Source: Phoronis australis
Taxonomy: Eukaryota; Animalia; Phoronida
Length of the DNA stretch: 64,000 nt
Reading direction: 5' to 3'
NCBI GenBank assembly: GCA_002633005.1
Contig: NMRA01000179.1
Coordinates: 341,954 to 405,953 of the forward strand
The position numbers were made by a program, and so were the translations under genes. Within the stretch, counting starts at the first letter, position 1. The number at the start of each line of letters is the position of its first letter. Shown here piece by piece: positions 14,398-53,287 of this stretch. The notes beneath the pieces are model-generated. The model was not told the origin of the DNA. It ran no database searches and was given only the letters and a program-made list of their open reading frames with translations.

Positions 14398-14485
14398 AAA
14401 AGGTGTTGCTTTTTGAGCTAACGTTAAATGCGAGACACCTACATGACATAAGTGAATGTGTCGCACCTCAACAATCGACTCTCAC

Positions 14486-19704: not shown

Positions 19705-19961
19705 TCAAGAATCAGTCCCCTCATCATTATCTCCACAATCCATGAGCCCTGCTGCATCGTTATTGTCGCTGCATTGCTGACCCTTCGGGCAACGTAGACG
19801 AGCTAAACAGGAAGCACCACTGTACTTCTGCCACAACCAATGAACCGCTAGTCCTAACAACGGTATAAGGAAGACAGCGGTGATGCTGGCGATGACGAAG
19901 GCGGCAATTTGTAATGTGGTGAACCGTGGTGGCATGGTATAGCCACACTTTGATGTGTCAC
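19705..19961 (-). CDS. BACE1: Beta-secretase, coding exon 9 (transmembrane helix and cytoplasmic tail)
   Basis: DTSKCGY...TLQIAAFVIASITAVFLIPLLGLAVHW..., like BACE1 CGYNIP..TLMTIAYVMAAICALFMLPLCLMV; stop at 19705. Confidence 0.88.
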
Positions 19962-20264
19962 CTAGACAGACAGAGAAACAAGAACAACATTTGTATTGGG
20001 ATGATTCATAAATCAATCCAAATGCAAATATTGTAGATTTTACATTAAAATTAACTTCCCTAAACCGAAGGTGTGTAAGGCAGATCTTTGCATAACTTAG
20101 ACACAGTTCCACACTACCTTGTTCTAATTTGCAAATGTGGTAGTTTATAGAAGTCACGTTTTGCCTTGTTCGTACGAAATGTCCGACTCAAGTTGAATGC
20201 AACATAAGCAAGTTTAATTATACAGAAAAAAAACTCTGAACTGAAAGGTCACATTCATGAGTTC

Positions 20265-20573
20265 TTTTATTGGTCATCACAGAGTATAAAATATCCGACA
20301 GAAATAATTGCATTTCAAGGAAAATGTTCTTTTTACAGAAAATGTGTGCCTCGCCATACCTGGCTAGTTTTAATGTTCCTTAATGGAACAGTCCTAAATT
20401 AAGAGTTTTTACTGAATAAAATAGACATAATGGTAAAATTTTTAATTTAGGACCGCCCCATTAAGAAACAATAAAACTAGCCAGGTAAGGCGAGGAATGC
20501 ATTTTCTAAAAAAGAATATTTCCTTGATGTGTAAATATTTCTTATATTTCATACTCTGTGATGACCAATAAAA
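20265..20573. mobile_element. Foldback/MITE palindrome in BACE intron
   Basis: Roughly 140-bp imperfect inverted arms: ttttattggtcatcacagagtat / atactctgtgatgaccaataaaa; cctggctagtttta / taaaactagccagg. Confidence 0.8.
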
Positions 20574-20822
20574 ATTATGAAGTCAACATGAGGGGCAATC
20601 CTCACAAAACAGTCAGTGTGTTCAATTTTAAAGTGCAACATGCCATTGTTTTTTGAGCAGCTGAAAGAGGGCGCAATATGTCATAAAGGAATAATCAACT
20701 CTCCTTTTGTATACTCCTTGTTTTTTGATATTTGTTTTCTTTTTCTCATTCAACATAGATCACTCTCCTGTTATGCAAATTTTGACAATATCCATTTCAT
20801 CAAAAATTAAGTGCAAATTTCA

Positions 20823-21065
<243 letters not shown>

Positions 21066-21345
21066 CTACACAAAATAGCTACAAAAATCAGTTTTAATCG
21101 GCCCTTGAAAAGCACAGCCAGCACGGAGTATCTCGTTCATCTTTCATTCGTATCCCGTTCACCTTTCGTCGCTAAGAGAAAATTTGAAGGTTTCAACAAT
21201 CCTCTATCTGCATCATCCTTCGTGACATAAACAACATTTAAATTGGACACATTAGACAACATACAATGGCCAGAACCAGAGTGCTCTGAGAAAATTATCT
21301 AACTTAACCAACAGTTCATCAACCAACACTTAGACATGCACGCAC

Positions 21346-21430
21346 CACGTGAAGAACTGGCAATGGCGAACTTGTAGCAATCGACACCAGGCGACACGTC
21401 CAGATCATCGCCGACAGCACGGAGATATTG
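21346..21430 (-). CDS. BACE1: Beta-secretase, coding exon 7
   Basis: QYLRAVGDD...DCYKFAIASSS matches QYLRPVED...DCYKFAISQSS. Confidence 0.93.
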
Positions 21431-22067
21431 CTGAAGGAGAAACAACAGTAGCAAGGGTCAATAAACGGGCACGATGCACTGAACTGACACCACAAGATGG
21501 TGTTAAATTGTAACACCAGGCATTTTGACAAGAACTTGAGCCAATATAAACAAAGTCAATAAATTTAAATCTTATGGCACTAAGCAGACTTTTTTAAAGT
21601 GTCTCAGTGTGGATGTGTGCACATATTTTCCCAATTTAGCCATAATGAGGGAAGCAATCATTTTTGTTGTCACCTTCAGTAAAATGATAGATCACTGGAT
21701 AAAATAAAATTGGTCTCTTGGCTATAAATATAAAGTGACCTAAACGGCCCAGCAAAAGGCCCACATCTTGGTTCAGGGTTCACCTCCATACATAACATCT
21801 GCATAGACTGCCAGTAGGACAATGTATTTGCCCAATCTACTTTAAGAGTCTGTTTCACAAAAGACTAACAACAGAAATTTGGTCTTACGTTTCCACTTCA
21901 CAATTGGTGAATAGTTAAGTCAAGTAATTATGATTGCATCTTCAAGTCTTAAGTCGCCTTTCATGAAACACGCCCCAGGAGTAGAGAATGTGGTTACATG
22001 GCATGTGGCTTGCTTTGGACTGACTGATGGGTTGATTATTACATAAACATTCAGAGCAATAGCATAC

Positions 22068-22331
22068 CTGTGGAGTGATATCCAATTGAATAGAACTCTT
22101 GTTACCAGTGCCATCCTCTGCCAAACTGATGTAGATGTTTGGGAACCCATAGAAAGGCGGAGAACTATCATTGAAGCACATGACTACCTTCCCACGCCAG
22201 AAATCTTCAGGGATCTGCCTATCCAGTAGTCGAGTTTCTGATTTGATTTCTTTGACAAGTGTGGAGAAGACGTCTTCTGGAAGACGCAGGTTTGTTGTCC
22301 CACTGTCCACAATAGATTTGTCTGTATTGTA
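22068..22331 (-). CDS. BACE1: Beta-secretase, coding exon 6 (second catalytic Asp, DSGT)
   Basis: YNTDKSIVDSGTTNLRLP...FWRG...LDITPQ; ag/gt borders. Confidence 0.96.
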
Positions 22332-22912
22332 CTGGAGAAAAATGAAGACAATGTGAGGTTTTGAGTCATTTTATGATGGCTGCCATTAAGTCTCCTGAGT
22401 GACCCTGAATTGTTGACCATTTTAGCATGTATGACCATAGGACATTCAAAAATATCAAAAAAAAAAATCTTGAACAAACTTCATAGAGTCAGTTTTGCTT
22501 GGAACTGGTAAGAAAGCAATAAGCTACTTTTGCTGTTGGTGTTGTCCCAGTATTGTGTTGCATTTCACCCTCTACTTATCTGGCTAAAAACAAAAATCAA
22601 ATACGAGCTTTTAATCTCATAAAATCAGTATCAATACTGGGATTATAGAATTCTATTCAGCTACCAACTCGACAAGTTACAGGAAATGCGTACATGTGCC
22701 ATTTTCAAGCTCGTAATTTAAGGGTTGTCCAACCCCAATAAATTCTGTCTTGATCGCTGGTGGTTTTGACGTACATGTTGGTAGTGTAACTAGAGTCCTG
22801 GAACTGTAAGGAACATTATGGGTCTGACCAATTTATGAGAGCAAAAGGCCTAATTTGATTATGCTTTTCTGCCAGCAGAGCAGGGAAAATGCAGCATTTA
22901 CTACTATCCACA

Positions 22913-23017
22913 TGACTTGTACAGGTGTTCAGTCTTGGACCCAGCTGACTTGTACAGGTGTTCAGTCCTGGGCCCAGCTGACTTGTACAGGTGTTCAGTC
23001 CTGGGCCCAGCTGACTT
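22913..23017. repeat. 33-bp minisatellite x3
   Basis: tgacttgtacaggtgttcagtcctgggcccagc repeated head to tail. Confidence 0.95.
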
Positions 23018-23747
23018 TGTCAATATGGGGCCAAGATAACTGACTAAGCCACGACAAATCTTAAAGTTTAATAAGTAATTTTAAAATAAAACTTGAGATT
23101 TGTCTTAAGAGATCTCTTACTAAACGCTGTTTTGATGATTTCAACAAATCCTCATTTTTCCACCTCCAAATGCATCATTGGTGTCAACCTTCCAAGTAAA
23201 ACGCAAGAATCAACTGAAAACTCATACTCCCTATGTCACAGACTGGAAATTATTATGGTCTTTGGTGGGTGGTCTTTCCCCACAGCTGAGAGCGTGGGTC
23301 ATGCTTGCACATTTAGCAGATTTTGAAAGGAGTTATCAAATTTTCCTTTGAGGGTTGTTGAGGATTACAGAGCATTATTTTGTTTCAGAGAAATGGAAGG
23401 AAGAGTCACTTTTAGTATCTGTTATGGTCAAATCTGGGTTTGGTATCCTTTTAAGTTGGACTCATTTTTTTACTTAAGTTTTGTCTTAATTTTGACTATC
23501 TCACTGGATGTGGAAGTTTCAAAGTTTGGAAGTTGACAAAAATTCTTAGTCTTAAGTCTAAAATGAACGTAAGCCAGTTTCTTGAACGGGCCCCAAGAAC
23601 TGCTGGCGAGCATCTACATGCTGCACAGTAAGCTGCATCTCATTGTAGCCAATGGTTTGGGCATATGGAGACGTCCAAGCTCCCCCTGGATCTACCACAG
23701 AATCAACAAGTGGGACAGCATGCCATCTAAAGTACAAATTGTCTCAC

Positions 23748-23882
23748 CTTTATACAATCCATAGCAAGACTGCGATGATCAACTCCCATGTCTGTGATGA
23801 TGACCTCATAGTACCACTCTTGGCGAATGGGCGTATAGAAGAGTGATCCAAGGTACAGAGAACTGTCGACTTCTCCAAGGAC
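23748..23882 (-). CDS. BACE1: Beta-secretase, coding exon 5
   Basis: [31 protein letters not shown]...MDCIK matches BACE1 [22 protein letters not shown]. Confidence 0.96.
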
Positions 23883-24369
23883 CTGACAAAAAGACAGAGG
23901 TGATACAGAGAAACTGACAACGGCAATAAACCTATGGGGGTCGTTATGGGACTGTTGCTCATACTATTCTAGCTAGAATACAGGAAAGTCTTGGATGAAC
24001 ACAGAAGGATGGTTTAGAAATGCTTACAGTAAATTAAAACCCGTTGTCTCAACCTGTTCCTTACTCCAGCAAGACGTGATTTCTGGGTTACCAATGAACT
24101 ACCAGTGCGTTCTTCCATGAGAATAAGTTTGGCACATAAAATAACACGCTGTATTAAACCAACTTGAAATGTCTGCTGTCACGCAATAGTGAACATTCAG
24201 TTATTTCGAGACATTAAAATAACTTCCAATTTGACTAGTATATAAACACCAATTTGAGAGGATTTAAAAATTCAAAAGTTGTTTTTTGTGATCATGGAAG
24301 ACAGGTTTATTGCTGCAAATTTCACCGTTAATATGTATCACTGTTTACCAGTTTTGAATAATCTCTTAA

Positions 24370-24641
24370 AAGGACATTATCGTTTTTACCACCAAAATAT
24401 TTTTGGGAAATACCGTTAGATGAGATAGATTTTTTAATTTGTTATTAGCTTTGAACAAAGCTACAAAAAAGTAAAATCTGTTATTTTCACGATTTAATCA
24501 CATACTGCTTATTCTCGTCGTCGAGTGGAATTTAGCTCTGCCAGTGGAGTATTTGATTGAAATCACAAAAGTTCCAGGTGCAAATCCACGCTGCGGCTGA
24601 TTTCAGAAATTTAAACCACTTTTCTCGCCGATAATGTCACT
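24370..24641. mobile_element. Possible Kolobok-type MITE
   Basis: TTAA on both sides; TIR aaggacattatcg / cgataatgtcact (11/13). Confidence 0.5.
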
Positions 24642-24948
24642 TTAAATCAACAAACCCAACAATCTAATGTGTAAATTGGAAGTGGGGTTGCCTTACTAGG
24701 GTTGAGTTTCTAGCACAACAGCATCACTAATGGGAAACTGGCTGTTCTCACACAACATCTCCGTCAAAATTAATTTGAAATTCATAAGGAAAAACAAAGT
24801 CATTTGTTTCACAAGGGTTTGGCTGGTTTCCTAGCGACAGTCCAAAGCAGTCAATCAGTTTTTGCAACCAACTTGAAGTTGGAAAATTCTATGTGAGGTG
24901 GTCACTCATGCGAGAGTTTTCTTTAGTCAGGAAGGTGGCGCCACTCAC

Positions 24949-25080
24949 CAAAGTTCCTCCCATGCTGGCATCAGTCCTATTTGGAGTGTCAATAGTGCCA
25001 CATAGTAACATACAAAACTCGTTGGGTATACCAAAAGTTTTGACAATGCCATCAAAGTACGGCATGACACTGGGATCAGG
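24949..25080 (-). CDS. BACE1: Beta-secretase, coding exon 4
   Basis: PDPSVMPYFDGIVKTFGIPNEFCMLLCG...SMGGTL matches [28 protein letters not shown]...SVGGSM. Confidence 0.93.
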
Positions 25081-25973
25081 CTAAAAGAAAAAATATAATT
25101 TATTCATAACACATGAAGAAAGAAGCAGTCAAAGTAAATTAACTGTTATGATAGAAGCCTAAAAGTATTCACCTAGCATACATTACACAAAACACTACCC
25201 AGTGCTCTTAAAAGTTTATATTTTCATAACAGAACCACTTTCACAGCATTTGCAGTCCATTTTCGGGCATTGGTCCAAAAACAGTGTCCACACAGGCAAG
25301 GCGGGCATTGTGTTTATTTACTCAGTCCATTTTTCGCACACACCCACAGGTTGTCGCTGGAGTACAGGAAACATTGATGGCGGTGACCAATCTGGTTATT
25401 TTTCCAATCAATTCGCCTTTACTCATTTATTTTTTACAAAGCTCAATTTTTGAATTCCAGTAATACAAATTTAAACTTGAATCTCTCAAAAAACACTGTG
25501 TATTTAAGGAACTAACGATGATTAATTGCTGAGGTAGAGAAAAATACCTGAAAATTCTAAAAGTGACGACACATGTTTTAAAAAAGACATCCGTCAAATT
25601 ATTTTCTTCATTATACGTGGATATTTTAACTGCAATGATGACACCCTTCAAACGAGTTATTTGACAGCAGCCCATCAAGAAGATTAATTGATTTCGTAAA
25701 ATGCACAACAGTGTTGTCAGTTGATGATTTTCATACATACTTCCTCAAACTTTCAAGGTGTTTATTTGTCCGTCATCCTAGGCACATTGTGTTGTGTCTC
25801 TTGACAGACTTTTCTATTGCTGCCTGAGGATGATCAACAAAATTAATATACATGAGAGCATGTCTGACATTCATCAACCAGCAACACCGTCATGCATCTG
25901 ATGAATTCTATTACCCTTAATCTGGAATATCTTGTGATCTCAAGCTAACCACGTCAACCAGATATTCACTTAC

Positions 25974-26193
25974 TCTGGCAATATCCTTGAAGGCCAAGCC
26001 AAAGATGCCCTGCCACCCAGACCCATTAATGAAGAAGTGTTTAGAGCTGGTAATGAGTGCAATGTCTGCCCGAATGGACGTTATATTGGTCAAACCAGGC
26101 AAAGCGATGAAATCTGAGGCCAGATGACCATGCCAATTCCCCTGTGTATAGAGTACTTCCACTTCTCTGCTTAGGTTAAGAAAGGTTGATGAG
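25974..26193 (-). CDS. BACE1: Beta-secretase, coding exon 3 (flap YTQG)
   Basis: SSTF...VLYTQGNWHG...FFINGSGWQGIFGLAFKDIAR. Confidence 0.96.
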
Positions 26194-27176
26194 CTGAAAT
26201 GTAATCGTAAACACTGCTAGTGATCAAGTTATGAACACTGTAGATTATGTACAAATTATGAACAGTGCAGATTATGATGCATGCAATTAGGATGATTCCA
26301 CCTAAGGTACTGCTGTCCTTTTTCAAGTGCATTGTGGGACGATTGTTGTGTCGGTGAATCACTGATAACTCGGTGGCCTGTAAACACTATGAAGTGGAGA
26401 ACGACAGTTGTCACTTGAGCACATCAGAATTGAAAGCATACTTCCACTTTAATATTTTTTTGTGCAACTGCACCAGTTGCTATCATTACTACACAAAAAT
26501 AAGATTGAAAGCGAGGCTTCAAAACATATCGAAGAAATGCACAACAAAATCTTTCGCGCAAAATATTCTCGAGGCGTGTCCCATCCAATCACGGTGAAGC
26601 TAAATCTTACCATCAAAAAGCATGGATCGCAAATTATAAATCAAACCTACATTCCATAGACCACAATATGCATGGAAACGGAAATCTTTAAGACATGATT
26701 ACATCATTGTCTTGGCTTTACAAAAAGAAAGCCCAAAACAGACCTGCGATGATAACGGATGTTTACAAGCTTAATAACCCTCCAACAATGCATTTAACAA
26801 AATCCCTCAATTACATTATAATTCAAAAATTAATTTCTTTCTACTGGGCTCCTCAGTGGCCAACTATAACTTGCCAACAATCTAATTTTCATCACCCTAG
26901 CTCTCCAAAAGAGCCATCAAGTACAGGTTAGGCAAGATTTCCATTATAGTGTTTAGTACAATGTCTTCTGTCCGGACAAATGAACAGCCAAGAGTCTGTA
27001 GAGTTTGCGTTTTAGGATGCCAAGAATCATACCATCTCAAAGTATGTCTGATTACAGGTAAGTAACTGCGAAGGAAAAGTTCAGCTTGACAGCTAACTGT
27101 TGGTAACTCCTTGACTAATGTAACTTGTCCAATTCTTTGAACATTGCAAGTGTTATCAATTAAGATGAGGGCAAAA

Positions 27177-27357
27177 TCAATTGGAGGAATACAACTAGGG
27201 TAGCAAATGAGTCAATTGGAGGAATACAACTAGGGTAGCAAATGAGTCAATTGGAGGAATACAACTAGGGTAGCAAATGAGTCAATTGGAGGAATACAAC
27301 TAGGGTAGCAAATGAGTCAATTGGAGGAATACAACTAGGGTAGCAAATGAGTCAATT
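27177..27357. repeat. Perfect 35-bp minisatellite x5
   Basis: tcaattggaggaatacaactagggtagcaaatgag at 27177, 27212, 27247, 27282, 27317; no spacers. Confidence 0.97.
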
Positions 27358-27681
27358 TCGTAAAAAACACCAAAATCCTTGCTTTTCTCACTCAGGAACG
27401 ACATCACATAGATTTACTGCCATTCAATTGCATATTCATTTAGAGAAATCTTAAGGAAATATTTAATTTATTTAGTACATACACTAACAATTTGCAGTCA
27501 AAACTAATACTACTTTCTTTAGTTAAATAAAATAAATCCTGAAGAAAGCATCTTACAGCTGATAAACAAATTCTGTTATATATATAATACATGCCAAAGA
27601 ATATTTGTTTTCAACTAATTTTGTAGAGACGTAAGCTGGACATTCCCTTTGAACCTAGAATTGGAAGAGCGTGAAACTTAC

Positions 27682-27776
27682 CGAGACGTGTCAAAGAAGT
27701 CGGTCACATAGCCTTGTTCACCGGCACAGGCTGCGACGGCAAAGTTTGAAGAACCCGTATCTACCAGAATATTCAA
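27682..27776 (-). CDS. BACE1: Beta-secretase, coding exon 2 (first catalytic Asp, DTGS)
   Basis: LNILVDTGSSNFAVAA; tacag and gtaag borders. Confidence 0.97.
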
Positions 27777-29401: not shown

Positions 29402-29665
29402 CTTCTGTGGAGGAGACCCTATGTTCACCTCGGTGTAGTACCCTTGACCTGGCTTGCCATGGAGTTCCACATCGTAGGACATATAGTGACCACTAGCGTC
29501 TATTGCCATGAACCCCCTTGGAACCACGGACTTGCCCATTAGTCCAGAGGCACGCTTCAGTGGCACCTTTAATGTTGTGCAGAGAGTGAGAGCCCCACAA
29601 ACAATGTTAACAACCAGCAGGAAAACTTTCAGCATCACAGGTGTTCTTGGTGCCATGATATGCAT
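29402..29665 (-). CDS. BACE1: Beta-secretase, coding exon 1 (signal peptide, propeptide)
   Basis: Hydrophobic leader, then LHGKPGQGYYTEVNIGSPPQK (BACE1 [21 protein letters not shown]); donor gtaagg; acceptor at 29799/29800 implies an upstream UTR exon. Start Met uncertain (29665, 29656 or later). BACE1 vs BACE2 cannot be assigned for an invertebrate gene. Confidence 0.92.
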
Positions 29666-32600
29666 GGAATGACCCCTAGTGTAAAGGGTAAAGACACATC
29701 CTTTTGGAGTTGTTAACCAGTCATTTTAGCCCCTCTTCTTGGCTCTTACGAGACTAAGATTCATCATGCTCCTAATGCAGCTTTGAGCCAATATGTTACC
29801 TGGAAACAAAACTTAGGCTAATCAGTTATGAGCCTGGGTTACACTCTCCTCACAATCAACTGACATATTTTCTAAACCCCTTCCCACCCTAAACCCCTTC
29901 CTTCCTTCAGTGGTGACATAAAATGGGAGTAATGTCTTTGGGAATAATTGTTTCACCAGCCCAATGACAAACTGTTGTCAGTACCTGCACTTAATTCAAC
30001 AGATTGAAATCAGTGAATCAGGAACTTCCAGGAAGATTTAAAGAAAGGGTAAAACCACCAATTTAAGATACAATATGTCCGACAAGTGAAATTCTATATT
30101 TTCATTTTTTAAGCAGCACCAAATAAATGCTGTTCTATTTTAAAGACTTATGCCACACCTGCCTTCAGACAAAATGATAATTCTGAGAAACTGTAGACAT
30201 TCAAAAATGAAAAGATCAATTTGGCAATTGTGGTTAGTAAACTTAAAACAGTCCTCAGTGGATGCCTAAGTCAGCAAAGCTCTCCTCAGTAGGAACCCGT
30301 CTGTTACCCTTCAAGGCAACATCTGACATCAGCTGCTGTTTCTATAACCCCCCTGTATTTTGTGAATTCCGCAGGTATATTATGTTATGGATGGTCGGCC
30401 ACCAGTGAATTTACAGATACCGATCCAGCAACAGACATATTCTTTTTGTCCCACTTTTAGATGGATCTGACTCGAAAACATTAAAAATGGCCACTACATG
30501 TAGATGGCACAGGATGTATTGAATCCATCCAAAAACGAACAGGCGGTATCATCTCTCTAATAGATTCATACCTATTTGCCAGTTCCATGAAGATCATTCT
30601 GTAAAGGAACCATGAAGATACAGAGGCAAACGTAAAACATAACAACACTACTAAAGGACACAATGGTAGCCGGACCCATCCAAAAATTCGCTTGTCATCC
30701 CATCCATGACAGGAACAAGTCTGCCAAATTTTATGAACACGCATCCTGGGGTTTTGGAGCCATAGCACCGGATGCTGCGCGAGCAGGTAAGGATGACATG
30801 TGGGCACACAAAAAAAGTTCAGGTGAGGACTAAAACAATAGCATGGAAAGGATTTCTGGAACAACTAAAATAATCATTAAACACCGTTTTACTAGCTTTG
30901 CCTTCAAGTAATGTGAAAATGTCATCAATAACAATTTTGAGCAACGATTATTATAATTTCAGCAAAGAAGCTAGCTTTAACAAATAAAAATGGCACTTTC
31001 ACAATTATTTTAATTTGTAATAAATTGGAGAAATTTTACCTTTACTAAAATCAGCAATAAAGTGCTTAGGGCAAAATCAAGACAACTGTGTTCAGCTGCC
31101 AATCTGCTTTGTCAATAAATCTAAATATTACAGCTTCTAATTGTCTTCAACAACTAAATTACTCATAAATTATATCAAAGCTGTACTGATCAATATATTG
31201 CAAGAATTTGTGTGTTCTTTTTTCAAAGCCCACCTGCAAAAATGGGTAAACCAGGGCCATTTTCCCCAATAGCTTGTGCTAAATTGAAATCCTGTCGATA
31301 GCTGCATGTAGAACTCTAACTTGTAGTGAATGAAAAAACACTTAAGAAACACCTGTTTAATTTTTCATACAGGCAGGTGTATGGGTGCACAGCGTGATAT
31401 TTTTCTTCTGCACTTACTGTATACATGACTAAATGTTTTTCTTATCAAAAGTTAAATGTACTGTACATAATCACCTATTCCTGTTGCAAGCACAACATTC
31501 GCCAATTGCTGCTTTTCATCAGGAGGGTTACAATTATTTTCCCCATGATAAATACTGCACAAGACAAAATGGCCACAAAACAAGTACACTGGACATGGGT
31601 GTCATCTGGCTTTAATTCTCAGTCAGCAGCGTAAAACAAATTTAGATTTAACAAAATATTCTCTTCAGTATATGTATTTACCAACAGGTCTACAGCAAAA
31701 AGGAACAACTTCAATGAAGTCCATTTGTTAGATTCGATACTTAGATAAATATGCACTTAAGTAAGTCTTGTTAATGTACATACATGTAAACTATGGAAAT
31801 AGTGGAGACTGTCATGAGAAATCCTACACGCACACTGTATAAACTTGAAATTTATTGAAATCAAATGGACGTTGGAATGCCGTGTAGTCACCGACGAATA
31901 AAAATATAAAATACTGGTAGTAAAACTAAACCGACGATCCATCTACATATACTCAGCAGTCTGTAGCACACACAATTGAAAAAGAGCGCATCGCTTGAAA
32001 CGTGGGAATATTTTAATATATTTTAGTACCGACGCTCATCGTTTTAGTTTTACTATTTTATAATTTATTGAACATGACTCAAAATGACTTTTCATAGTCA
32101 CAATGCCTAATCATTTATATGATAACAATGTTCAAGATTATTTCATCAGAGTTACTCATTGAATCATCAATATTTCCAGGCACAATAACTCATCTTTATT
32201 GAAGCAACACATCAGAAATTAAACATTTAACAACATTGGAAAAAGAAAACAATATATGGAAGATCATGCTATTAAACAGGTTATATCGGCGACCATGGAA
32301 TATGAGACTACCAGAGAAGTCAGTGAGATAAAGTAGGTCACACTGCTCTGGACATCTCATAAACCCACGCAAAATAATACCTAAGAACATACTCAAAAAC
32401 ATGTGATGTCCTCGCTACATATGGATATCAAACTACCTCCTCCCTCACTGACACGTGAATCATCAAATATCTCCTCAATTCCAGGCATGTGAAGCAAAAC
32501 TTGGACATTCATACAGGCCTTGGCATAGGCAATTAACGACAATATAGGACCTTGTTGATCCAATACCTACAATGCTTTAGCTTTTAACTTGATGAAGTAA

Positions 32601-32962
32601 ATGAATACTGAAAGCAGAAAACCTTGAAGAATTGGATTTTTTAAATTTTACTGATGTGCCTTTATTTGGGTCACATGACCATGTCCTTTTTGATAACCCC
32701 TCGTGCATAAGGGGTGCATTAACCATAGTATCTGAAAGTTTCGTATGATATTGATCAGCCATTTTGAGGTCTGCACAAATGTTTCGAAGTTACTCAAATT
32801 TGGACATTTTTCTAAAGTGCTCCATAGATTTAATAACTACATGTACAAGTCACACTGCAATATTTTAGCAACATATAACTCAAACCACAACACAACTGAC
32901 AATGTCAGGACTGTCAACATGTTGTTTCAAATGAATACCACAATCATTAATTGTAAGAACTT

Positions 32963-33520
32963 TCATTTCGGCTGGCAAAGATTCCTCGATTTCTGATGTC
33001 GCGATGCAGGTTTTTTGTTTTTGTTTTCCATCCTTTGGGTCCGTGATTGAAATGTTCCATTCTTTAAATCTTGCCTAAGCTCCATTAGGAGTTTCCCAAA
33101 CACATTTTGACCACCTTCACCATTCAATCCCGTCCCCCAGTATAAATCATCAACAGTATGCAATAAAGTTTTGTCACCAGTGTTCAACAGAGTTTCGCGA
33201 AAAATGTCAACTTGTACAGCCTTCTCCCCTAGTAGTTCTTTCATCAACTTTGCTCGTTGCCCAATCCACTTTCTGTCAGTAACAATCTGATGTGACAAAC
33301 GCTTTGCGTCAACAGCGAACTCCGCTTGCTCAATCACCGCCTCCAATTCAAAGTTTTTGTGGTGTTTGGCTTTTATGGCCTGATAGGCATGCTCGGTAGA
33401 TTTGTACTTCGTTTCTCTTACTTTTACGTCACACATGAAAAAATTCGACAAAACGTCACCGGCGCCTTGTACATTTCTATAGAGAATGTCAGAATCGCGA
33501 TCACTAGGGTCAGTTGACAT
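32963..33520 (-). CDS. NADAR (YbiA/DUF1768-like) N-glycosidase domain protein, 185 aa, CDS without introns
   Basis: LSNFF, STEHAYQAIKA, W..QR..LM.E.L..K, FRETLLNTGDK, DLYWGTG...GQNVFGKLLMELR are NADAR family motifs; splice acceptor tttcag 32 nt upstream of the ATG. Confidence 0.88.
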   Translation of the reverse strand: MSTDPSDRDSDILYRNVQGAGDVLSNFFMCDVKVRETKYKSTEHAYQAIKAKHHKNFELEAVIEQAEFAVDAKRLSHQIVTDRKWIGQRAKLMKELLGEKAVQVDIFRETLLNTGDKTLLHTVDDLYWGTGLNGEGGQNVFGKLLMELRQDLKNGTFQSRTQRMENKNKKPASRHQKSRNLCQPK

Positions 33521-34566
33521 TCTTCTTCTACCAGGTTAGTCTTGAACGATACCTGAAACGTCCAAGGTGTCAATCCTCAATCCTCGCATTGCTTCCCCAC
33601 ATAATCATTGTACATAATATCCCTTTAATGATAAGCTAACAGTATATATAGATACTTGAAATGTCTTAGTTTGTTTTACTCACAGAACACTTTACACTGT
33701 CAGGCATCAACACCAAGCAAACACAACTTGACAGAAAAACATCATGGGTGACTCAAACAAGGCTTTTGTATACCTGTTTATCCCATCACAAACTTTGTTG
33801 AGGACTACATGAAAGCAACACTTTGTTTAATTTAGTGCAACTTTCAGAATTTAAAAATGAGCATGATACACTAATTGTTGCCTGTCACTTATCATTGCAA
33901 ATAAAACAGTGTTGAAAGAAAGAAATTTGTCCCATCAAGTGTAAACAAAGCCAAAATAAGAGAAAGTTAAGTGTAGACAACAGTAGGTCTGTTACGACCC
34001 AAATAGGAATCTGATCCATTTTGGAATGACATCATGTTAACACAGGAAGTAGTTTCTGGCCCATATCGGAATGTGTGATCACTGACGTTGCATTGCTCTA
34101 AGTGAGTGGAGGTGGGCAGGATTGCTGTGTTTAATTCTTGAGATGGACGGTTTTTTATCCAAAATTTTGTGAGGTTCAATCAGGAATTCTATAATTCCAA
34201 AATTTGTGTACATTTCTATTCCGTTAAAAATTACTATTTTTGGATACTCGTGTTACTGGTGATTTTTCAATGTTTCCAACAGGCCTCTCAATTCTTGCTG
34301 GTTTTGACTTTTATCTGTACATGTTTTCTATTTTTACGATTCTTCAATCAGGTATGAGCATGCATCGTCAGCACATGGACAAGTATCATGCTGAAGCTGT
34401 GAAGTTTAAGAGCAGCCGGATCATCTCTTGACACTATAGACAAGATATCCAGTGTCGTTACTTGTCAGTGACCTCAATTTAAAATGGTTCAGCAATAAGA
34501 ACATCTGCCCATTGAATCCTCCAAATAATGAATGTCACTGACATCCTGGCTGTTCTCAGGGAAGGT

Positions 34567-35870
34567 AAAACAAGAGCAACGCAGAGCGTTGAAATTCGCC
34601 CACAATTGCACCGTATACGGTATCCTTCTAGGGTTGTTTATTGGTACCATAAAGTGGCCAGTAGAGGACATATATATGTAGTATGTTGTACTTTGCAAAA
34701 TGGAAAGGCATGTTCATTGTCTCCTCAACAGGCTTGGGGCAAAATGTGAGTGATCTTCATAATACAGGCACATCCTATACATCAGTTGCTTAAAGCACCA
34801 CAGAAACATAGAATTAAAAACAAATTTATCAACATACGAGATTAGCACAGCATTAGAATGCCAGAAACAAAATTCTACTCGGAACTTTTCCTTCATAGTC
34901 ACGAAGTAACACAAAGTATACACCTGAAAATGCAGAGGTCAATGTAAAATACTAAAATTGCCACTAGAGGCATACCGGTAGTCAGAATCATCCTAAAGTC
35001 GTCATCGTCCGTTGTCAACATCACATAAATACACTTGCTAAATTTAGTAAAGATCCTGCAATTGGTTTGGGAGATACAGCCATGGGCGCAAAAAAAAAAC
35101 TGCCACTAGGAGGCGCCACAGTAATCAAAGTCATGGGAAATTCAGCGTCAACCGTCCTCTTCATAGTAAGAACATACATACCAATTTTCACAATCATACT
35201 TAGAGCGGTTTGGTTTATAGAGGGGTGGATGCCAAAAAACAGACTCAAAAACAGTAAAAATGGCCACTGGGTGTCGCAAACTGGGTCAAATCCATCCGAA
35301 AACGGGAGGATAGCGTCATCGCACTAATAGGTGCCTACATACCAAATTTCATGAAAATCTGTTAAGGAAAAAGTTTGTGAAGATACAGAGGTAAACATAA
35401 AAAAATAAAATTGCCACTAGGGGGCACACTGGTAGGCGGATCCGTCCAAAAGTCGTCATCGTCTGTTGTTAACATCATATAAATACACTTATTAAATTTC
35501 GTAAAGATCCTGCGAACGGTTTAGGAGATACAGCCATAGGCGCAAAAAAAAAAAAACTGCCACTAGGAGGCGCCACAGTAGTCCAAGTCGTCTGAAAATC
35601 ATTGTCAGTTGTCCTCTTTACAGTAAGCACATACATGCCAATTTTCACAATCATCCTTTGCGCGGTTTGGTTGATACAGGGGTGGACGCAAAAATACAGA
35701 CTCGAAAACAGTAAAAATGGCCACTAGGTAGCGCAAACTATGTCGAATCCATCTGAAAACGGGAGGGTAGCGTCATCTCACTAATAGGTGCCTACATACC
35801 AAATTTCATGAAAATCCGTTCAGGACTTTTGAAGATACAAAGGTAAGCGTAAATATGAGGGCGCATAAAA
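34567..35870 (-). mobile_element. Helentron-associated (HINE/DINE-like) element, copy A, with ~455-bp internal tandem units
   Basis: Ends aaacaagagcaacgcagagcgttg... and ...gggcgcataaaa; reverse complement of copies B and C; unit repeats at 35101 and 35557. Confidence 0.75.
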
Positions 35871-36953
35871 ATTAGTTGGTAGAATTTAAGTTACTATCCG
35901 AGTAAATTTGCATTGACTTGTCCACTAACACTGATAAATTTATTACGCAGCCAAATGATTGAAACTGGGTTAATGACTTTGAATGGAGGCTCCATTCCTC
36001 ATCTAAGACCAGGCATGATTCAGTTGACTGGGAACCAAGGTAAAGACACATGCGTTCAGACATACCCCCCAAAAATACACCAATAACTATAAGCATTTAC
36101 TATTAATATTCAATAATTCAATTCAAATCATAAAAAATATTCCAACTTATCGGAATTCCGATACGAGAACGACCCAAATCAGAATATTGCAATTATTCCT
36201 TTAAGCTAAAAGAAGCATCTATTACTTTAACTGTTACTGTATCTCATCAGTTAGTGTAAATTATTCTGAAGGACTACATAGTCTGAAGGACCAGTATTCC
36301 GAAATATTTACAAAAGTTTGAGAACCACTCGTAGTCAACAGTCTGAAAGGCCATTGGTTCAAAGGGCAGATTGTTCAAACCTAGTAAACGATAACCTGAA
36401 AGGCCAATATTTGGAAAGTGACCTTTCTACTATTCAGATCACTGGGTAGCTTTTCAAATTATTTATCGTGCACCTTCGTGAGTTTCTTGGCTAGCAGTTG
36501 GATGGAAGCTTGATTGTTGTTTCCATCAGAACACCTGTTAATAATGATTACCAGTGGTTGGTTAATGAGTAGACAAGTTCACCATCATTATATTTAAAAC
36601 CCATATTTTTCTATAGGCCTAACCTAAACAATCATTAGTTATAGACTATTATTTAAGAAATTTGTTCACCAGGTTGGTTTACTCTCAGCCCTTCGGACTA
36701 TTGACCCATCGGACTAAAGTGTCTGTGGGGTTTTCATTTCGGACTAACGGTCTTTGGCATTTATCTTTGAAGTAATGTTCCTTCGGAATGTCTATATGAT
36801 GGAGCCTCGGAGGTAACCCCAATCAGACTCAGCGGTCTAGTACTGAATTTGGGACACGTCTATGACAATATATCACAATTACCACAGTACTTCGTCTGGA
36901 TATTCTGTTACGACGTCAACGAATTGTGAACTATCCAGCTATACTAACCTTAC

Positions 36954-37157
36954 CAAGGTAAACGGGGCTTAATTATCATTTCGAAGAAAATCGAAACTGC
37001 TTGTAACCCAGTTGTCGTCCTTGTTTGTTGAAATCTTCGGGGATCTCTGCGCTAAACCGGAAAGCGGAAGTGTAAACAGCTCCCTCTTTTAGTTGAATAT
37101 GGCGATATTTTGCAATTTCTCGTTTGCCTGAAAGTCAGAGATTTAGCAGTAAAGCAG
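36954..37157. promoter_or_regulatory. Putative bidirectional promoter with non-coding first exons of BACE (minus) and DNMBP (plus)
   Basis: Tandem ETS motifs ccggaaagcggaagtg (37057-37072), YY1-like aatatggcg (37096-37104), local CpG enrichment, outward-facing donors TTG|gtaagg (minus, 36954) and CAG|gtgagg (plus, 37157). Confidence 0.65.
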
Positions 37158-37989: not shown

Positions 37990-39289
37990 ATTATGTGCCC
38001 ACATATTGATATGTGGTCGCATATTGCCATCATCTCTGTCTGGACATCCAGTGTCCCCCGTTTGCAGCTGTACCTCCTAAGCCCCCTACATGATCTTGAT
38101 GAGATTTCGGAAACTTGCTCATATGAAGCTGACAATGTATGATGACAAATTTCGGATCTCTCCGACTACAGGTATGCCCCCTAGTGGTAATTTTAGTTTT
38201 TTACACTTACCTCTGCATCTTCGGAAGTCCTCAACCGATTTTCATCAAATGTGGCAGTTATGCGTATATTAAACAGATGACGCTATCCTCCCATTTTCGG
38301 ATGGATTCAAGTTGTTTTACGCTACCTAGTGGCCATCTTTTACTGTTTACAAAAGTCTGTTTTTTGAAAATTGGAATATATGTTTTTACTGTGGAGAGGG
38401 TGGGTGACGATGATTTTTCGACTACTGTGGTGCCTCCTAGTGGCAGTTTTGTTTGTTTTTGCGCCCATGGCTGTATCTTCTAACTGCTCTACAGGATCTT
38501 TATTGAATTTTACTGCTGAATGTATATGAAATTGAAAGCAGAGTACGACAACGTTCGATTGGACCGGATTATCGGTGTGTGACCATATTTTTGTTTTTTA
38601 TGTTTACCTCTGTATCTTCAAAGATTCTCAACAGATTTTCATAAAATTTAGCAAATACTGTACTGAGTAGGCATCTATTGGTGAGGTGACGCTTTCCACT
38701 TGTTCTCGGTTGAATTCAAGATATTTTGTGCCACCTAGTGGCTATTTTTACTTTTTTTGAGTCTGTTTTTCGGCATCTGCCCTGCTGTCAACCAAACCAC
38801 TCTAAGGATGATTGTGGAAATTGGCATGTAAGTTCCTAATGTGAAGAGAAGGGCTGATGATTTTCCCACGAATTTGAGTACTGTGGCATCTCTTAGTGGC
38901 AGCTTTGTTTTTTTTTGTGCCCATAGCTGTATCTTCTAAACACTCTGCAGGATGTTTAGTTAAATTTTAGCAAATGTATTCATATGAAGGTGACAACGGA
39001 CAACAATGACTTTCAGACGTATCTGAGTATCGCTGTACCCCAATAGTGGCAATTTCATTTTTAACATTTTCCATTTTCCTTTGTTTCTCTGAAGCTCCTT
39101 TACAGATTTTTATGAAATTCAAAATAGTTTTGTATTAAAAAACGATGACATGTTCCCGTTTTCGGATGAATTCGACATATTTTGCGCTATTTAGTGGTCA
39201 TTTTTATGATATAAATAAACACCCCTAGAAGCACACCATTTACAACTGCATTCATGGGCGTATTTCAATGCTCTGCGTTGCTCTTGTTT
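37990..39289 (+). mobile_element. HINE-like element, copy B
   Basis: Starts ttatgtgcccac, ends atgggcgtat + hairpin caatgctctgcgttg + ctcttgttt; same internal units as A. Confidence 0.75.
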
Positions 39290-40343
39290 GCTAATGACAT
39301 GAAAGAACTATTGGTGAAGTAGACTTCGTCCTAGACGTAAATTTTTTGGTCGGATGTGTGCAGGCCACAACACACATTAAATGGAAACTTACAAATTGAA
39401 TGTATACCGTTTATGCACATATTTAGGCCCATGCTCCAAAATCCAAAGTACTGTCTTTCGAACATTGACATATATGTTGAAGCTTCCCTTCTATACATAG
39501 GCTGCTGTCTCTTATATTTCAGGCATAGGCAGCTGTTTCCCTCCCTTATATTACAGGCATGGACAAGTGCTCCATTTCTATGTGTCTGCAAAAATTGGGC
39601 ATTCACGGCATGATATTAAGAATAGTTGTATTTTAACAAAATTGTCGACGTAATTCAGCACTGGATGTTGTGCCCAATAAGTTTTATGAATTTCAAAACT
39701 AAGTATTTGAATTGCAGACGTGCTTTTGACTTGAAACATACAGAGATCAGACAGTTTCCTGTAAGTTACGACAGTTGGGCTTTATCAGCTGCTTGCATCA
39801 ACAAGTCAGAGCAACTGGGTTGTTAGAAATGAAATGCCACCAAAGAGTGTACTGACCTATGCATTACCGTTTTTCATCTTCTGATTCCTATGCAACATCA
39901 TAATTTTGCGATTCGCCAGATAGTGTTGTAAACATTTGACACAGAACTGGTAATGTTGTCCAAGACCTGTGAGTACTGAGTTTGGATTTTGTCACGTGAC
40001 TAGTTTAATTGACTTCCTGCAATGAGCATGAGAATTGTGTTATGCAGGGCATTAGTCACTTGAAGATCATTTAGTGGCTTTATTTCTTTTGACTTTATTG
40101 TTGATCCTGCCAAAGTCATGAAAGTTCTTGTCTTAACTTGTACCCAAATCTTCCTTAGAACCATTTAACCAGGAAATTTCTTACTTCAAGGACCAAAATT
40201 ACGCAAGTCTGAAATTGCTCGGAGCTAAAACTGAAGGTGAGCTAGCTACAGAGTAGGATTAAAATCGTAAATTTTGGGTTTTCTTCTTCAAAAATATATT
40301 CTTTTTTATCACATCCACTGAACAAAATTGTCACTGATAGCCA

Positions 40344-42630
40344 TTTTTATGCGCCCACATCTCTCTGGGCGTCAGGCGTCAGCAGCTTTATCTCCTAATC
40401 CCTTCTTAGGATCTTGATGAGATATGACATGTGTTTCTATGAAGCTGACGGCTGACGACGACAAATTTCAAACCTCTCCGACTACTGGTGTGCCCCCTAG
40501 TGGCAATTTTAGTTTTTTACGATTACCTCTGTATCTAGGGAGGTCCTCTACGGATTTTCATACAATTTGGCAGTTAGGCATCTATTAGTGAGATGATGCC
40601 ATCCTTCTGTTTGTGGATGGATTTGAGGTAGTTTGTACCACGTAGTGCCCATTTTTACAGTTTTCGAGTCTGTTTTTTTGCCATCCGCTGTTCTATCAAC
40701 CAAACTGCTCTATGGATGATTTTGAAAATTGGCTTATGTGTTCTTACTGTGAAGCACAGGCGCTTGGGTTTATCGCAAATGACATCACTCAATAAAACAT
40801 AAAGGTTGGACACTTACACTTTGCCAAGCCGAGGCTCCCAACTTCAACCGTCCAAAATCCAAATAAAATCTGCGTGCACCTCCCTCAGTCTGGTGTTGCA
40901 TAAACCTTCGAAGCCTTATCTTTCCTAGATCCCATTAACTGTATTCGTGAGAGGTGAATTGGCGATGGAATTTCTAAAACAATCTCAAAACTCTGAATTC
41001 AAGGAAAACATGGCGGATTTCAGTTGTGCTTCAACTTGTACGCCTGTCGTAGGTGAAACTTCGAGTTTGAGCAGGCAACCTATATTTCAAATTCAATAAT
41101 TCTAATCCAAAACTCAACTAATTGAGAATGTTAAAGTTAGTATTTTAATGATTATTTGTAACTTTATTCCACTGACGGCTCATTTTAGCCCTTAACTTAG
41201 AATTTTATTACATAAACTGGCGTATCTTGTTTCTCATCTTGACATCACGCACTTTTTTGATTGAAGCACAATACACACTCGGCCAGGAAACGCAGTCCGT
41301 GCAAGTATTACAATGTGTGTGGCCGACGAGTTAACTCAATGGTTTTGGCCAAAAGTAAAACCTTCATAAAAAATCACAGTACACAAAAAACTTCGCATAT
41401 CAATACAGTATCAGGATAATTTATATTTGACACAAATATGTGAGTAATTACATTTATTTGGCAATAAAGTGCTCTCTGCTTCTCATGATCAAGTAGTCGA
41501 TGGATTGACGGCGAAAGCCGAGCGAAATTAGACTTTTGGATTTAGCTCGGGAGCGTCTGTCAAAATCCGGATGTGCGAATACCGTCTGCCATGACATCAC
41601 GGAATTAGGTCCTTGAATTTGTGATTTTGGCATTCTTTTGGCATTTTTGTCGCCAAATTACCACTTGAAGGCAATTTGAAGAGATCGAATGAAAGAAAGT
41701 ATTCTAAGAGTTCTTCGATGCTAGTTTCGTGGAGTTCCATGCACATTTGAGTAGAAAATTCTGAGCAAACAGATTTCGAGTGTCCAACCTTTATGTTTTC
41801 TTATATATTATGAGTGATGTCATTTGCGATAAACCCAAGCGCCTGTGCTGTGAAGAAGGCAGCTGACGATGATTTTCCAACGACTTTGACTACTGTGGTG
41901 CCTCCTGGCGGCAGTTTTATTTGTTTTTGCGCTCGTGGCTGTATCCCCTACATGTAAATGCTCTACAGGATTGAATTTTGTTGGTGTATTTATATGAAGT
42001 TGACAACAGAGGATGATGACTTTCCGACGGATTGGGATACGGGTGTTCCCCCTCGTGGCAATTTTACCTTTTTATGTTTACCTCTGTATCTTAAATGGTC
42101 GTCAATGGATTTTTATAAAATTTGGCTGTTAGGCATCTATTAGTGAGATGACGCTATCATCCAGTTTTCGGCAAAATTCGAGGCTTTTTATGCCACCTTG
42201 TGGCCACTTTTACTGTTTTCTATTCTTTTTATTTGGCATCTGCCCCTCTGTCACCTAAACCACTCTAAGGATGGTTGTGGAAATTGGCATGTATGTTCCT
42301 AATGTGAATCCAAAGTCTGACGATGATTTTGCGATGGCTTTATGAAGTTGACAACGGACGACGACAACTTTGAGACGGATCTGACGGAATGCTGTGCCCC
42401 TAGTGGCAGTTTCATTTTTTCTGTTTTTCTGTTTCTATGAAGCTCCATTACGGATTTGTATGAAATAAATAACTTTCTATTAAACATGATGGCATGTTCC
42501 CGTTTTTGTATGGAGTTGACGTATTTTGCGCCATTTAGTGGCCATTTTTATGATACAAATAACACCCCTGGAAGCACACCATTTTCGGTGCATTCATGGG
42601 CACATTTCAACGCCCTGCGTTGCTCTTGTT
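40344..42630 (+). mobile_element. HINE-like element, copy C (interrupted by a nested DNA transposon)
   Basis: Starts tttttatgcgcccac, ends atgggcacat + hairpin caacgccctgcgttg + ctcttgtt. Confidence 0.75.
40755..41847. mobile_element. Non-autonomous TIR DNA transposon with 8-bp TSD (P- or hAT-like)
   Basis: Perfect 37-bp TIR cacaggcgcttgggtttatcgcaaatgacatcactca; TSD ctgtgaag at 40747-40754 and 41848-41855; no ORF. Confidence 0.93.
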
Positions 42631-44437: not shown

Positions 44438-44558
44438 ATGGCTCATGGGTTTGTGAAGGCAACCTATCCATTCTCCACCAACGAGCCAGGGGAGATAAGT
44501 CTAGAGGTGGGCGATGTTGTTGAAGTTGTGTCAGTTGTGGATAGCAACTGGCTCAAGG
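44438..44558 (+). CDS. DNMBP: Dynamin-binding protein (Tuba), coding exon 1 (SH3-1)
   Basis: Acceptor at 44429, gccATGg; MAHGFVKATYPFSTNEPGEISLEVGDVVEVVSVVDSNWLKG; donor gtacgt. Confidence 0.88.
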
Positions 44559-45178
44559 GTACGTTATCTGAAATGGGTCATGTAACACTCCAGGTCTTGT
44601 TGTTGCCAAGGTCGCAGACTGGGCCTTACGTCTTATTCATGGTTGTTGTCAGATATTGCAATGTGTTTTTATTAAGACCAATATTAGGATAAGTTGTATC
44701 GAAGACCAAATTATTTTGTAAAAATCCAGCTTATTCTTCTAATGCATGTTGAGGCTCACTTAATAATTATAATATAAGTTGTTTGTGATGTCTCTGCATG
44801 TTTACATGCCAACAATTGTCCCACAATCTATTTGAAAAACAACATCAGTGGCAATAAGTCAATAAGTTTTACTCCTACATGAAATTCCCAGAATAACACC
44901 AAGTCAAAATTGCGAGTTTTCTATTTGTCAGAGGTTGTTGCTGAAAACAATGTAAACTTATCAAATGTTGCTTTGCGGCATTTACTCAGTATGAACCAAC
45001 TTTAAGCTAATAACAGACTCAAGCATTTTCTTAATCTTTGTTTCTGCTGAGAAATTTGACGAAAATTCACTTGTCCACCATATTGTGCTAACTAGGTGAA
45101 GAATTATTGTACAACAGTACTGAAGAACGCACTGCACAGTTTTAGTCATTGCGGAATTTTTCTAGGGTATGTTAAGTG

Positions 45179-45446
45179 CAGGGCTTGGAATTTTCCTCTT
45201 TTAAGAAGATTTCCTCTTTTTTGGTTTCGATTTCCTCTTATTTGATTTCCATTTTCTTCATATTTGTCTCTGTTTTAATCATTGTTTTGACTTAAGTTTA
45301 TTCAGTGTAAAAGCATTGTATTTCTGTAATCAGTTAAATTTTACAACTTACAAAAAATGTCTCTATCATACTAGCCTGTTTATTTATGGAACGATAAATC
45401 ACCTGGAAAAATTTTCTCTTTCTGACATTAGTCATTTCAAGTCTTG
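45179..45446. mobile_element. hAT-like MITE with 6-bp TSD
   Basis: cagggcttggaa...ttcaagtcttg flanked by taagtg on both sides; same left end as 60079. Confidence 0.65.
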
Positions 45447-45762
45447 TAAGTGTTTTAAGGCTTTAGACAGAAATTTGTTGTGACCTTCCCACTTCACAAT
45501 TCTGAAAATTTTTGACCAAATGGTTATGAGTGTATCACAGTCTAGAAATAATTTTTAGAAATTATGTTAACTTGCAGTTAGGTATTCCTCAGAGACTTTT
45601 GCTCGAGTGAGATTTAAATATTTTTCAGAAATAGTTGTCATAGAAGGTAAGACCAAATTTCATACTAAAATGAGCCACTTTTCATGAAAAAGGTTAGACG
45701 GATGCATGCAAGTGTACTGAACACTGAACAGAATGCTTCTACATTATCTATTGGTTTTGTAG

Positions 45763-45906
45763 GTAAGCTAGATGACAAAACAGGCAATTTTCCCGTAAAC
45801 TTCGTAGAGAAAGTTCAACTACCCTCTTTGTCAGCTGGCCAGAAGGTGTTTGCAGCTATCAAAGACTTCCCTGGTGATACACAAGGGGATCTGGGCTTCA
45901 AGAAAG
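45763..45906 (+). CDS. DNMBP: DNMBP coding exon 2 (SH3-1/SH3-2)
   Basis: GKLDDKTGNFPVNFVE...VFAAIKDFPGDTQGDLGFKKG; phase 1/1. Confidence 0.9.
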
Positions 45907-46582
45907 GTACATTACATGCCAAAGATTAATCGGGAAAAATTCCTTTTCTGTAACGGCCAGTCTTCATGATGGGAAATTCTGACTGATTTTTACTGAATGG
46001 GCATCATGTGACAGACAATAATTATCCTTTTTAATGAGTTTTGCAAGAACATTGTGTTGTAACCAATCAGTCCGCTGGCGCATTTGCAATTCAAAGAGTT
46101 TTTAGTCAAATCTCTGTTAGTTAATTGTTTAGTTACATTTTTGTGTTTAGAAAACTAGGAGACTAATTATGGGCCAGCTTCCGACAAACATTTCATTTCA
46201 AAATGTCGTCTACTTTAACAAAATGCACTCAGTCCACTCTAGACTGTGGTCCATTGTGTACTCAGTAGCAGAAGACCTGTAAGAATTAATACTGACTCGA
46301 CGTATGAAAATCTCTTATTAAAGTCCTATGTAGCATGTATCAGGTCTTGCCCAAGTTGCAAACTTCTAACTCCAAGGAATCAAGTCTGTGGGTCACGATT
46401 CCTTCTGTTTAACCCTTCATTCTATCCATGTTTTCATGAATATGTAGGTAGGAATGCAAACTCATTGAATTAAAAAAAATAGACTGAGTTGGCACTGCAT
46501 AAGGCTTTAAGATTTCTGCAGAGAATTAGAACCTTCTAAAGACGTTGCCTAATCTGGTTTAAACTCCTACGATAAATTTCAG

Positions 46583-46690
46583 GTGATGTAATTCATGGTC
46601 TTCACGCTGTAGACCAGAACTGGTGGAAGGGTAGACTGGGCCCTAATGAAGGAATATTTCCTATTATTTTAACCAAGGAACTTCCTTCTG
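46583..46690 (+). CDS. DNMBP: DNMBP coding exon 3 (SH3-2)
   Basis: GDVIHGLHAVDQNWWKGRLGPNEGIFP; tttcag and gtaagt borders. Confidence 0.9.
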
Positions 46691-49620: not shown

Positions 49621-49978
49621 GTTGGACAAGTGCAGCAGCTATCTGAACCTCTTTCTGACTACTCTGCTCTGAGAGAGGCCATCGACATGGACTCAGGGTT
49701 GGCAGCACCTAAGAGCCCCTCTCCCAAGAAGGGTCCCCCGCCTCGGCCTGTAGGACCACGTGCGACCGCTACCACACTCAAAGCGCCCTTAATACCTCTA
49801 CCGAGGAACGTTCCGAAGCCAGTTCCACAACGTGTGGCTCCGTCTAGGCCACAGCAATCAACACCACCTCCACGACCAATGCAGTCCCCTGTCAAACCGA
49901 CTTCCCCAACTGACAGGGGTATACCACCTCCTAGGCCAAGGCCCATCAGTCATCCAGTCCGACAGTCTTCCATTACAG
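49621..49978 (+). CDS. DNMBP: DNMBP coding exon 5 (proline-rich)
   Basis: PxxP-rich (GPPPRPVGPR, TPPPRP); tacag and gtactt borders, phase 0/1. Confidence 0.82.
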
Positions 49979-53256: not shown

Positions 53257-53287
53257 GTGGGTACCAGTTAGGATATGCCACGATTAT

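Follow-up and report, generated by a model that had tools for sequence, protein, structure and literature searches.

The cholinergic gene locus (C. elegans unc-17/cha-1; VAChT/ChAT) has a gene layout that, as described in parts of PMC3875643, works in the same way as the one reported here. The two products of that locus act in one pathway, whereas BACE and NADAR have no evident link. The nested gene here also differs in that it looks transposon-derived.

PGBD3, in CSB/ERCC6, is a transposon-derived, intron-free ORF. Like the NADAR gene, it has an acceptor just upstream and is used as an alternative 3' terminal exon, and its level is comparable to that of the host mRNA (portions of PMC2268245). 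It makes an in-frame fusion protein, whereas exon 1 here contributes 0 residues. PGBD3 keeps its terminal repeats, according to the same portions. At the NADAR locus no element ends were found, and the donor was likely a retrotransposon.

NADARs as modules of retroelements are described, in the excerpts of PMC12477816, for Tx1 ORF1 in oyster and for Gypsy Pol in Ectocarpus. They are parts of these elements and are described there as YbiA-family. We likewise recovered LINE loci with a NADAR ORF1. Unlike the Tx1 and Gypsy domains, the NADAR here is stand-alone and driven by a host promoter. It carries a His on its last strand (the His type), like the NADARs of Penelope-like loci.

The architecture is already known from the cholinergic locus and PGBD3, and NADARs are likewise known from retrotransposons. 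The combination appears new within the open-licence literature searched. Among the matches listed, none placed a NADAR in a Penelope-like ORF1, and none placed a NADAR on a BACE leader (NADAR and BACE not combined as terms).

The window (the whole 64,000-nucleotide stretch of Phoronis australis DNA analysed here) contains a BACE gene with a NADAR gene in its first intron. We take the latter to be a real, expressed shared-leader nested gene that is probably retrotransposon-derived and has a predicted activity. The features are as follows.

32963..33520, minus strand: intron-free NADAR ORF of 185 aa (intact ORF, Pfam, stranded reads).
33521..33552, minus strand: NADAR acceptor and 32-nt leader with an in-frame stop (sequence, reads).
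32175..32962, minus strand: probable NADAR 3' UTR with a putative cleavage site (depth decay, hexamer, contig end).
36949..37039, minus strand: leader exon 1 common to both mRNAs, ~91 nt, with an approximate start site (loose-end consensus, molecule ends).
36950..36979, minus strand: 9-codon uORF within exon 1, on both mRNAs (read from sequence).
29402..29799, minus strand: BACE exon 2 (acceptor 29799, short uORFs, start codon at 29665 or 29656).
19708..27775, minus strand: BACE coding exons 3-10 (DTG and DSG catalytic motifs, C-terminal hydrophobic segment; some boundaries off by one base).
34568..35853, no strand assigned: dispersed high-copy intron repeats, two ~453-bp units that are 84% alike and unrelated to NADAR (RNA read mapping).
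44438-62609, plus strand: DNMBP/Tuba gene, head to head with BACE (read from sequence).
14468-14800, minus strand: DOMON-domain exon of a probable monooxygenase, downstream of BACE (Pfam).

Stranded RNA-seq runs (X2 to X4, all of one study, with ~18-19% of each used) and an older contig set (X1) were used for the transcripts. Repeats in the intron swamped wider mapping, and junctions were resolved on a narrower stretch from the loose ends of reads. The loose ends at acceptors 33552 and 29799 gave the same 30-letter consensus. It occurs once in the window, which places the donor at 36949. Junction reads to the NADAR acceptor numbered 6, 4, and 13 in X2, X3, and X4 (n=23 listed), so that this junction was present in 3/3 raw-read runs, all of the one study. 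Those to the BACE acceptor numbered 6(+4), 4, and 12+9 (n=31-35 listed). The NADAR share of the listed junction reads was 23/54-58, or ~40%.

The main donor lies after 36949 (AAG/GTTAGT). It joins the BACE acceptor in 6, 4, and 12 reads of the three runs and in one X1 contig. A second donor lies after 36954 and, among the loose-end rows listed, is joined to BACE only (9 reads in X4 and a mixed row of 4 in X2). The mixed row consists of 4 reads at the BACE acceptor (29800) with an agreement of 0.62. The second sequence of this end had no match in the window even when as many as 3 mismatches were allowed, and it may come from another upstream exon or allele. In X4, 6 molecules terminate at 37039, which is the basis of the ~91-nt leader. 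We infer from these ends and from the loose-end lengths that the NADAR and BACE mRNAs have one start site.

The gene has a common 5' untranslated exon, is nested in the first intron, and has no coding overlap with BACE, as expected of a shared-leader nested gene. The sequence-only reading had proposed that one leader exon could yield BACE or NADAR by choice of acceptor, and the reads bear this out with the donor shifted by 5 nt. Its predicted donor, 36954, is used and is listed for BACE only; the main donor is 36949. Of the junctions it had named for a search of RNA-seq data, 36954->29799 was seen and 36954->33552 was not among the listed rows. The junctions 36949->33552 and 36949->29799 were both seen.

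The NADAR acceptor is TTTCAG/G. Its exon begins at 33552, 32 nt upstream of the ATG. The earlier claim of an intact 185-aa ORF with its own acceptor holds, with a full domain and an acceptor that is used in reads. When the intron was shuffled, 0/200 shuffles yielded an ORF of at least 185 aa, and the longest was 146. Read depth over the ORF was 9-19 (6-17 in the last bin) from the minus-strand transcript only, compared with 0-4 over the intron and 11-35 over BACE exon 2. X1 contigs do not cover the NADAR ORF (32963-33552), though they cover BACE exon 2 and the exon-1 junction; such holes prove nothing.

The probable 3' UTR contains AATAAA at 32200-32195. Further candidates are at 32834, 32666, 32069, and 31856. 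Stranded depth drops from 6-17 to ~0.4-3 by 32167-32317, and an X1 contig terminates ~20 nt beyond the hexamer at 32200. No poly(A) reads were listed near this AATAAA, and the 3' end is placed from the hexamer, the depth drop, and the contig end. Given the depth decay to the hexamer and the contig end, the most likely role of the NADAR exon is that of an alternative terminal exon. X1 also has a contig at 32184-32324, at the end of the probable 3' UTR (depth 35), unlike the uncovered ORF.

Exon 1 contains a closed 9-codon uORF whose stop is 33 nt upstream of the NADAR ATG. With the in-frame stop in the 32-nt leader, this means that no fusion protein is made, and NADAR is predicted to be stand-alone, without fusion to BACE. 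An N-terminal extension from exon 1 was ruled out by the same in-frame stop. Fusion of NADAR to BACE, or read-through splicing, was rejected because the joints listed for RNA reads on the locus include none that connects the NADAR exon with BACE.

Reads contained 6 variants in the ORF, of which 3 were silent and 3 missense, with 0 stops and 0 indels. The pN/pS was 0.26, which is not significant with 3 + 3 variants (p=0.11). NADAR read depth was equal at 90% and 96% likeness, and there are therefore no near-identical transcribed copies.

The ORF matches Pfam NADAR (PF08719) with 73.1 bits against a cut-off of 35.1. Sequence matches included E. coli YbiA and a Phytophthora NADAR. The domain covers approximately residues 10-156 of 185 and is followed by a basic, low-confidence tail. 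The predicted model has a pLDDT of 91. It shares its fold with 8BAU (Phytophthora NADAR; Z 17.9, rmsd 1.9, 145 residues) and with 2B3W (E. coli YbiA; Z 16.7, rmsd 2.4, 143 aligned). The nearest clusters in the ESM Atlas are bacterial or viral NADARs.

The protein contains E43, K50, K73, W85, R89, H121, D125, and W128. In the alignment, the equivalents of 8BAU E43, K50, K75, W89, R93, D130, and W133 are retained (paper numbering matched with an offset of 2). In contrast to 8BAU, both Glu125 and R79 are replaced by His, at His121 and His77. His121 occupies the last-strand column in the multiple alignment and in the alignment to 8BAU. In the pairwise alignment to E. coli YbiA, L120 rather than H121 stands opposite the Glu.

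Membership in the YbiA subfamily was rejected. Its last-strand Glu, as given in excerpts of PMC11125620, is replaced by His121, and TIGR02464 scores 70.2, below its cut-off of 73.7. The YbiA label given to the gene earlier is dropped, as the defining last-strand residue is His and not Glu. The DarG1/BC4488 antitoxin class was also rejected. Its last-strand Asp is absent (His121), and its N-terminal extension was not found here. 8BAT aligns from its residue 48 only (Z 8.6, rmsd 4.3). The last-strand His is shared with the phage NADAR gp30.3/AdfN, as described in excerpts of PMC11125620. PF08010 (gp30.3) gave no match at E 0.001, and the trees contained no gp30.3 row.

Phage NADARs with a last-strand His remain active on guanine-ADPr (excerpts of PMC11125620). 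Guanine-ADPr is hydrolysed by every NADAR family assayed, among them a sponge NADAR and the phage enzyme of the His type (PMC11125620 and PMC12945103, in the portions covering these assays). As every assayed family removes G-ADPr, the protein is likely an ADP-ribosylhydrolase and is predicted to act on guanine in RNA or DNA. Hydrolysis would use E43, K50, and H121. Animals do not make riboflavin, and riboflavin damage control was discarded as a role for this reason. NADARs occur in arthropods, nematodes, molluscs, echinoderms, sponges, cnidarians, and Branchiostoma, and their roles in animals are described as unclear (both in excerpts of PMC11125620). The sequence-only reading had called the family patchy in Metazoa, which overstates its rarity in view of this list.

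A full HMMER search gave 6,875 matches with a best identity of 46%. No orthologue was found in it, nor in a word-based homologue search, and viral contigs scanned with the NADAR protein held no relative. The best matches were mostly NADAR domains within longer proteins. By Pfam alone, 19 of the top 60 had a GDSL esterase, CCHC knuckle, or PHD. By our own profiles and regex, 75 of the best 150 had an esterase, a CCHC knuckle, or a Penelope-ORF1-like N-terminus. PHD, CCHC, and esterase are known as ORF1 modules (portions of PMC4120745). Several short matches were stand-alone (P0013, P0017, and P0019). P0001, P0002, P0006, and P0008 are long proteins of low complexity, each containing two or three NADAR domains, and one of them is from the annelid Paralvinella palmiformis. 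They are possibly further domesticated or duplicated ORF1 modules.

Loci were fetched with an alignment of six esterase-type (Penelope-type) matches, and the best 80 of 180 were kept; the set is therefore enriched in that class. It contained nine loci with a NADAR(+esterase) ORF1 followed by a long downstream ORF. Matches to RT and/or GIY-YIG were present in 8/9 of these, and in three a single ORF matched both, as in Penelope-like elements. APE or APE+RT ORFs, the arrangement of LINEs, were present in five further loci. In the Penelope-like loci (L001-L005, L013, L015, L017, and L026), ORF1 consists of a helical N-terminus, a His-type NADAR, and an SGNH esterase and is followed by an RT/GIY-YIG-type ORF. 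L026 is a tandem array (4622-7510, then 7420-9822). L018 contains a LINE-like ORF1 at 1840-4710, with DnaJ, NADAR, and a weak GDSL, directly upstream of an APE endonuclease ORF. L027 (3956-7435) and L031 (4034-7435) encode an mRNA capping enzyme with a C-terminal NADAR and a last-strand Asn. We take both to be giant-virus contigs, probably.

The last-strand His is present in the query, in 9/9 Penelope loci, and in 8/8 Penelope-ORF1-like matches. A Glu is present in 19/19 microbial, 8/8 phage, and 4/5 LINE rows, where microbial denotes NADARs that stand alone, on contigs that are mostly gene-dense, and is not a taxonomic term. The best phage domain scored 56 bits, compared with 104 for Penelope-ORF1-like domains.

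The query groups with ORF1-borne NADARs of Penelope-like and LINE retrotransposons, apart from microbial and phage YbiA. The larger tree held 90 of 293 domains (context-labelled loci, matches of at least 86.5 bits, and four tandem proteins). Here the query fell into a group of 51 rows, among them every Penelope and LINE row, with a split support of 95/91 from bootstraps that had not converged. The other side held 39 microbial, phage, capping-enzyme-fused, and tandem rows. Forcing the query among those 39 rows was rejected by the AU test (p=0.034). A 47-row tree gave the same split (100/99) and joined the query to P0035 and P0052 (96/94), also with bootstraps not converged and with the deep order not settled. 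P0035 has a CCHC knuckle and a Cys-rich N-terminus, and P0052 has a PHD; both are known here from protein domains alone. The third member of the query's group differs between trees (P0015 with 90 rows, P0052 with 47 rows). The picorna-like viral polyprotein P0143 lies within the same broad clade and has the same His. An earlier 171-row tree came from a quick search and has no prokaryotic rows.

The phylogeny proposed earlier has thus been run with microbial, phage, and transposon-borne rows, and it puts the query with the retroelement rows. Of the origins that had been listed for the gene, a mobile element is favoured, and direct bacterial or phage transfer is disfavoured by the trees, the AU test, and the scores. 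NADAR was likely taken from a retrotransposon ORF1.

An intact retrotransposon, Penelope-like or LINE, was rejected as a description of the locus, which has no other ORF1 domains and no RT/endonuclease ORF beside NADAR. No RT, endonuclease, esterase, or Penelope N-terminus was found near the NADAR ORF. A search of the window with 357 proteins/ORFs (tblastn) and 2 profiles gave nothing convincing outside the NADAR region. The interval 31500-34600 contains no A run of at least 7 and no convincing flanking repeat. Old retroelement insertions lose terminal repeats, target-site duplications, and A tails.

The reading that we favour, and judge somewhat more probable than its rivals together, is as follows. 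The BACE leader is spliced either to BACE exon 2 or to an intronic terminal exon that encodes a stand-alone NADAR. This NADAR would be a domesticated retrotransposon ORF1 module and a predicted remover of ADP-ribose from guanine in RNA or DNA. The data show both splice junctions, transcription from one strand, and an unbroken ORF with the NADAR fold and its conserved residues, and the reading is built on these. The event behind it would have been the insertion of a retroelement, or of its RNA, in BACE intron 1. The insertion would have left a NADAR module with an acceptor, an ATG, and a poly(A) signal, and the PHD, zinc-knuckle, esterase, and RT parts of the element would then have been lost. 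Transcripts from the BACE promoter would choose the NADAR exon or BACE exon 2. Polyadenylation probably occurs near 32175, which would make the NADAR and BACE mRNAs mutually exclusive per transcript. Translation would proceed past the 9-codon uORF. Domestication of NADAR by the host is the step that we infer from these data.

Other explanations were weighed against a domesticated module. The exon could be a functionless passenger, that is, an exonized retroelement fragment with a chance acceptor and poly(A) site that is transcribed while its protein is not needed. We regard this as rather unlikely. The lack of an orthologue, the nonsignificant pN/pS, the uORF that ends 33 nt before the NADAR ATG, and the absence of the ORF from X1 contigs are consistent with a passenger. 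However, no other part of an element could be detected, and the surviving NADAR module is intact and starts at its own ATG. It retains its active-site residues, has no indel or stop in reads, and receives ~40% of the junction reads at a conserved gene. It is less likely again that an old NADAR gene of the animal host gave rise to a retrocopy or relocated copy, which captured the BACE leader. No match exceeds 46% identity, the His variant tracks Penelope-like ORF1, and the nearest rows, in trees without named animal host NADARs, are PHD/CCHC multi-domain proteins. These points weigh against the intron-free coding sequence, the short stand-alone matches P0013, P0017, and P0019, and the wide occurrence of NADARs in invertebrates (excerpts of PMC11125620), which would suit such a copy.

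NADARs are present in annelid and bivalve picornaviruses (portions of PMC9503650), and P0143 (RdRP, helicase, and NADAR) is a His-type member of the same broad clade among the best 150 matches. The gene could accordingly be a fragment that was endogenized from the polyprotein of a positive-strand RNA virus. We consider this improbable: P0143 ranks 143/150 (38%), the tree does not place it as the sister of the query, and no further part of it matched the window. The least probable origin, and one that is largely refuted, is that a ybiA gene came directly from bacteria or phage by horizontal transfer. The gene is intron-free and stand-alone, its Atlas neighbours are bacterial or viral, and a ladybird precedent is cited in the portions of PMC12945103 concerned. 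Against this stand the His in place of Glu, a phage domain of 56 bits at best compared with 104 for Penelope-ORF1-like domains, the AU test (p=0.034), and the absence of a relative in the viral contigs.

As a domesticated module, the locus is an expressed, small, stand-alone NADAR with a traceable source and a predicted activity, amid unclear animal NADAR roles. It suggests that retroelements, and not direct transfer from bacteria, may be the source of some animal NADARs. In addition, reads support the sharing of one leader exon by two unrelated proteins here, and ~40% of the listed junction reads go to NADAR instead of BACE. The presence of NADAR in Penelope-like ORF1 makes it worth asking whether the nucleic acids of retrotransposons are ADP-ribosylated in animals. 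A bolder reading, which we offer tentatively and think doubtful, is that, in invertebrates, ORF1 NADARs of Penelope-like elements and several LINE groups erase host ADP-ribosylation of element RNA/cDNA. The host would have domesticated one His-type eraser on the BACE promoter, with splice choice setting the beta-secretase:hydrolase ratio. If this is true, animals would have an unrecognised defence against retroelements that works by ADP-ribosylation.

Nine BACE exons could be read from the sequence on the minus strand, between 29799 and ~19708. One of them matches human BACE1 with an E value of 3e-13. The BACE leader in exon 2 (29656-29799, minus strand) contains three more short uORFs of 13, 3, and 7 codons. 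The mammalian BACE1 leader is also uORF-rich. The closest relatives of DNMBP (44%) are from a nemertean and a bivalve, which weakly places the host as an invertebrate and probably a lophotrochozoan. Repeats of a ~450-bp family are present at 34568-35853 and 38064-42630, tandem and inverted, and flank the BACE promoter. Their RNA depth reaches ~2000, from copies elsewhere.
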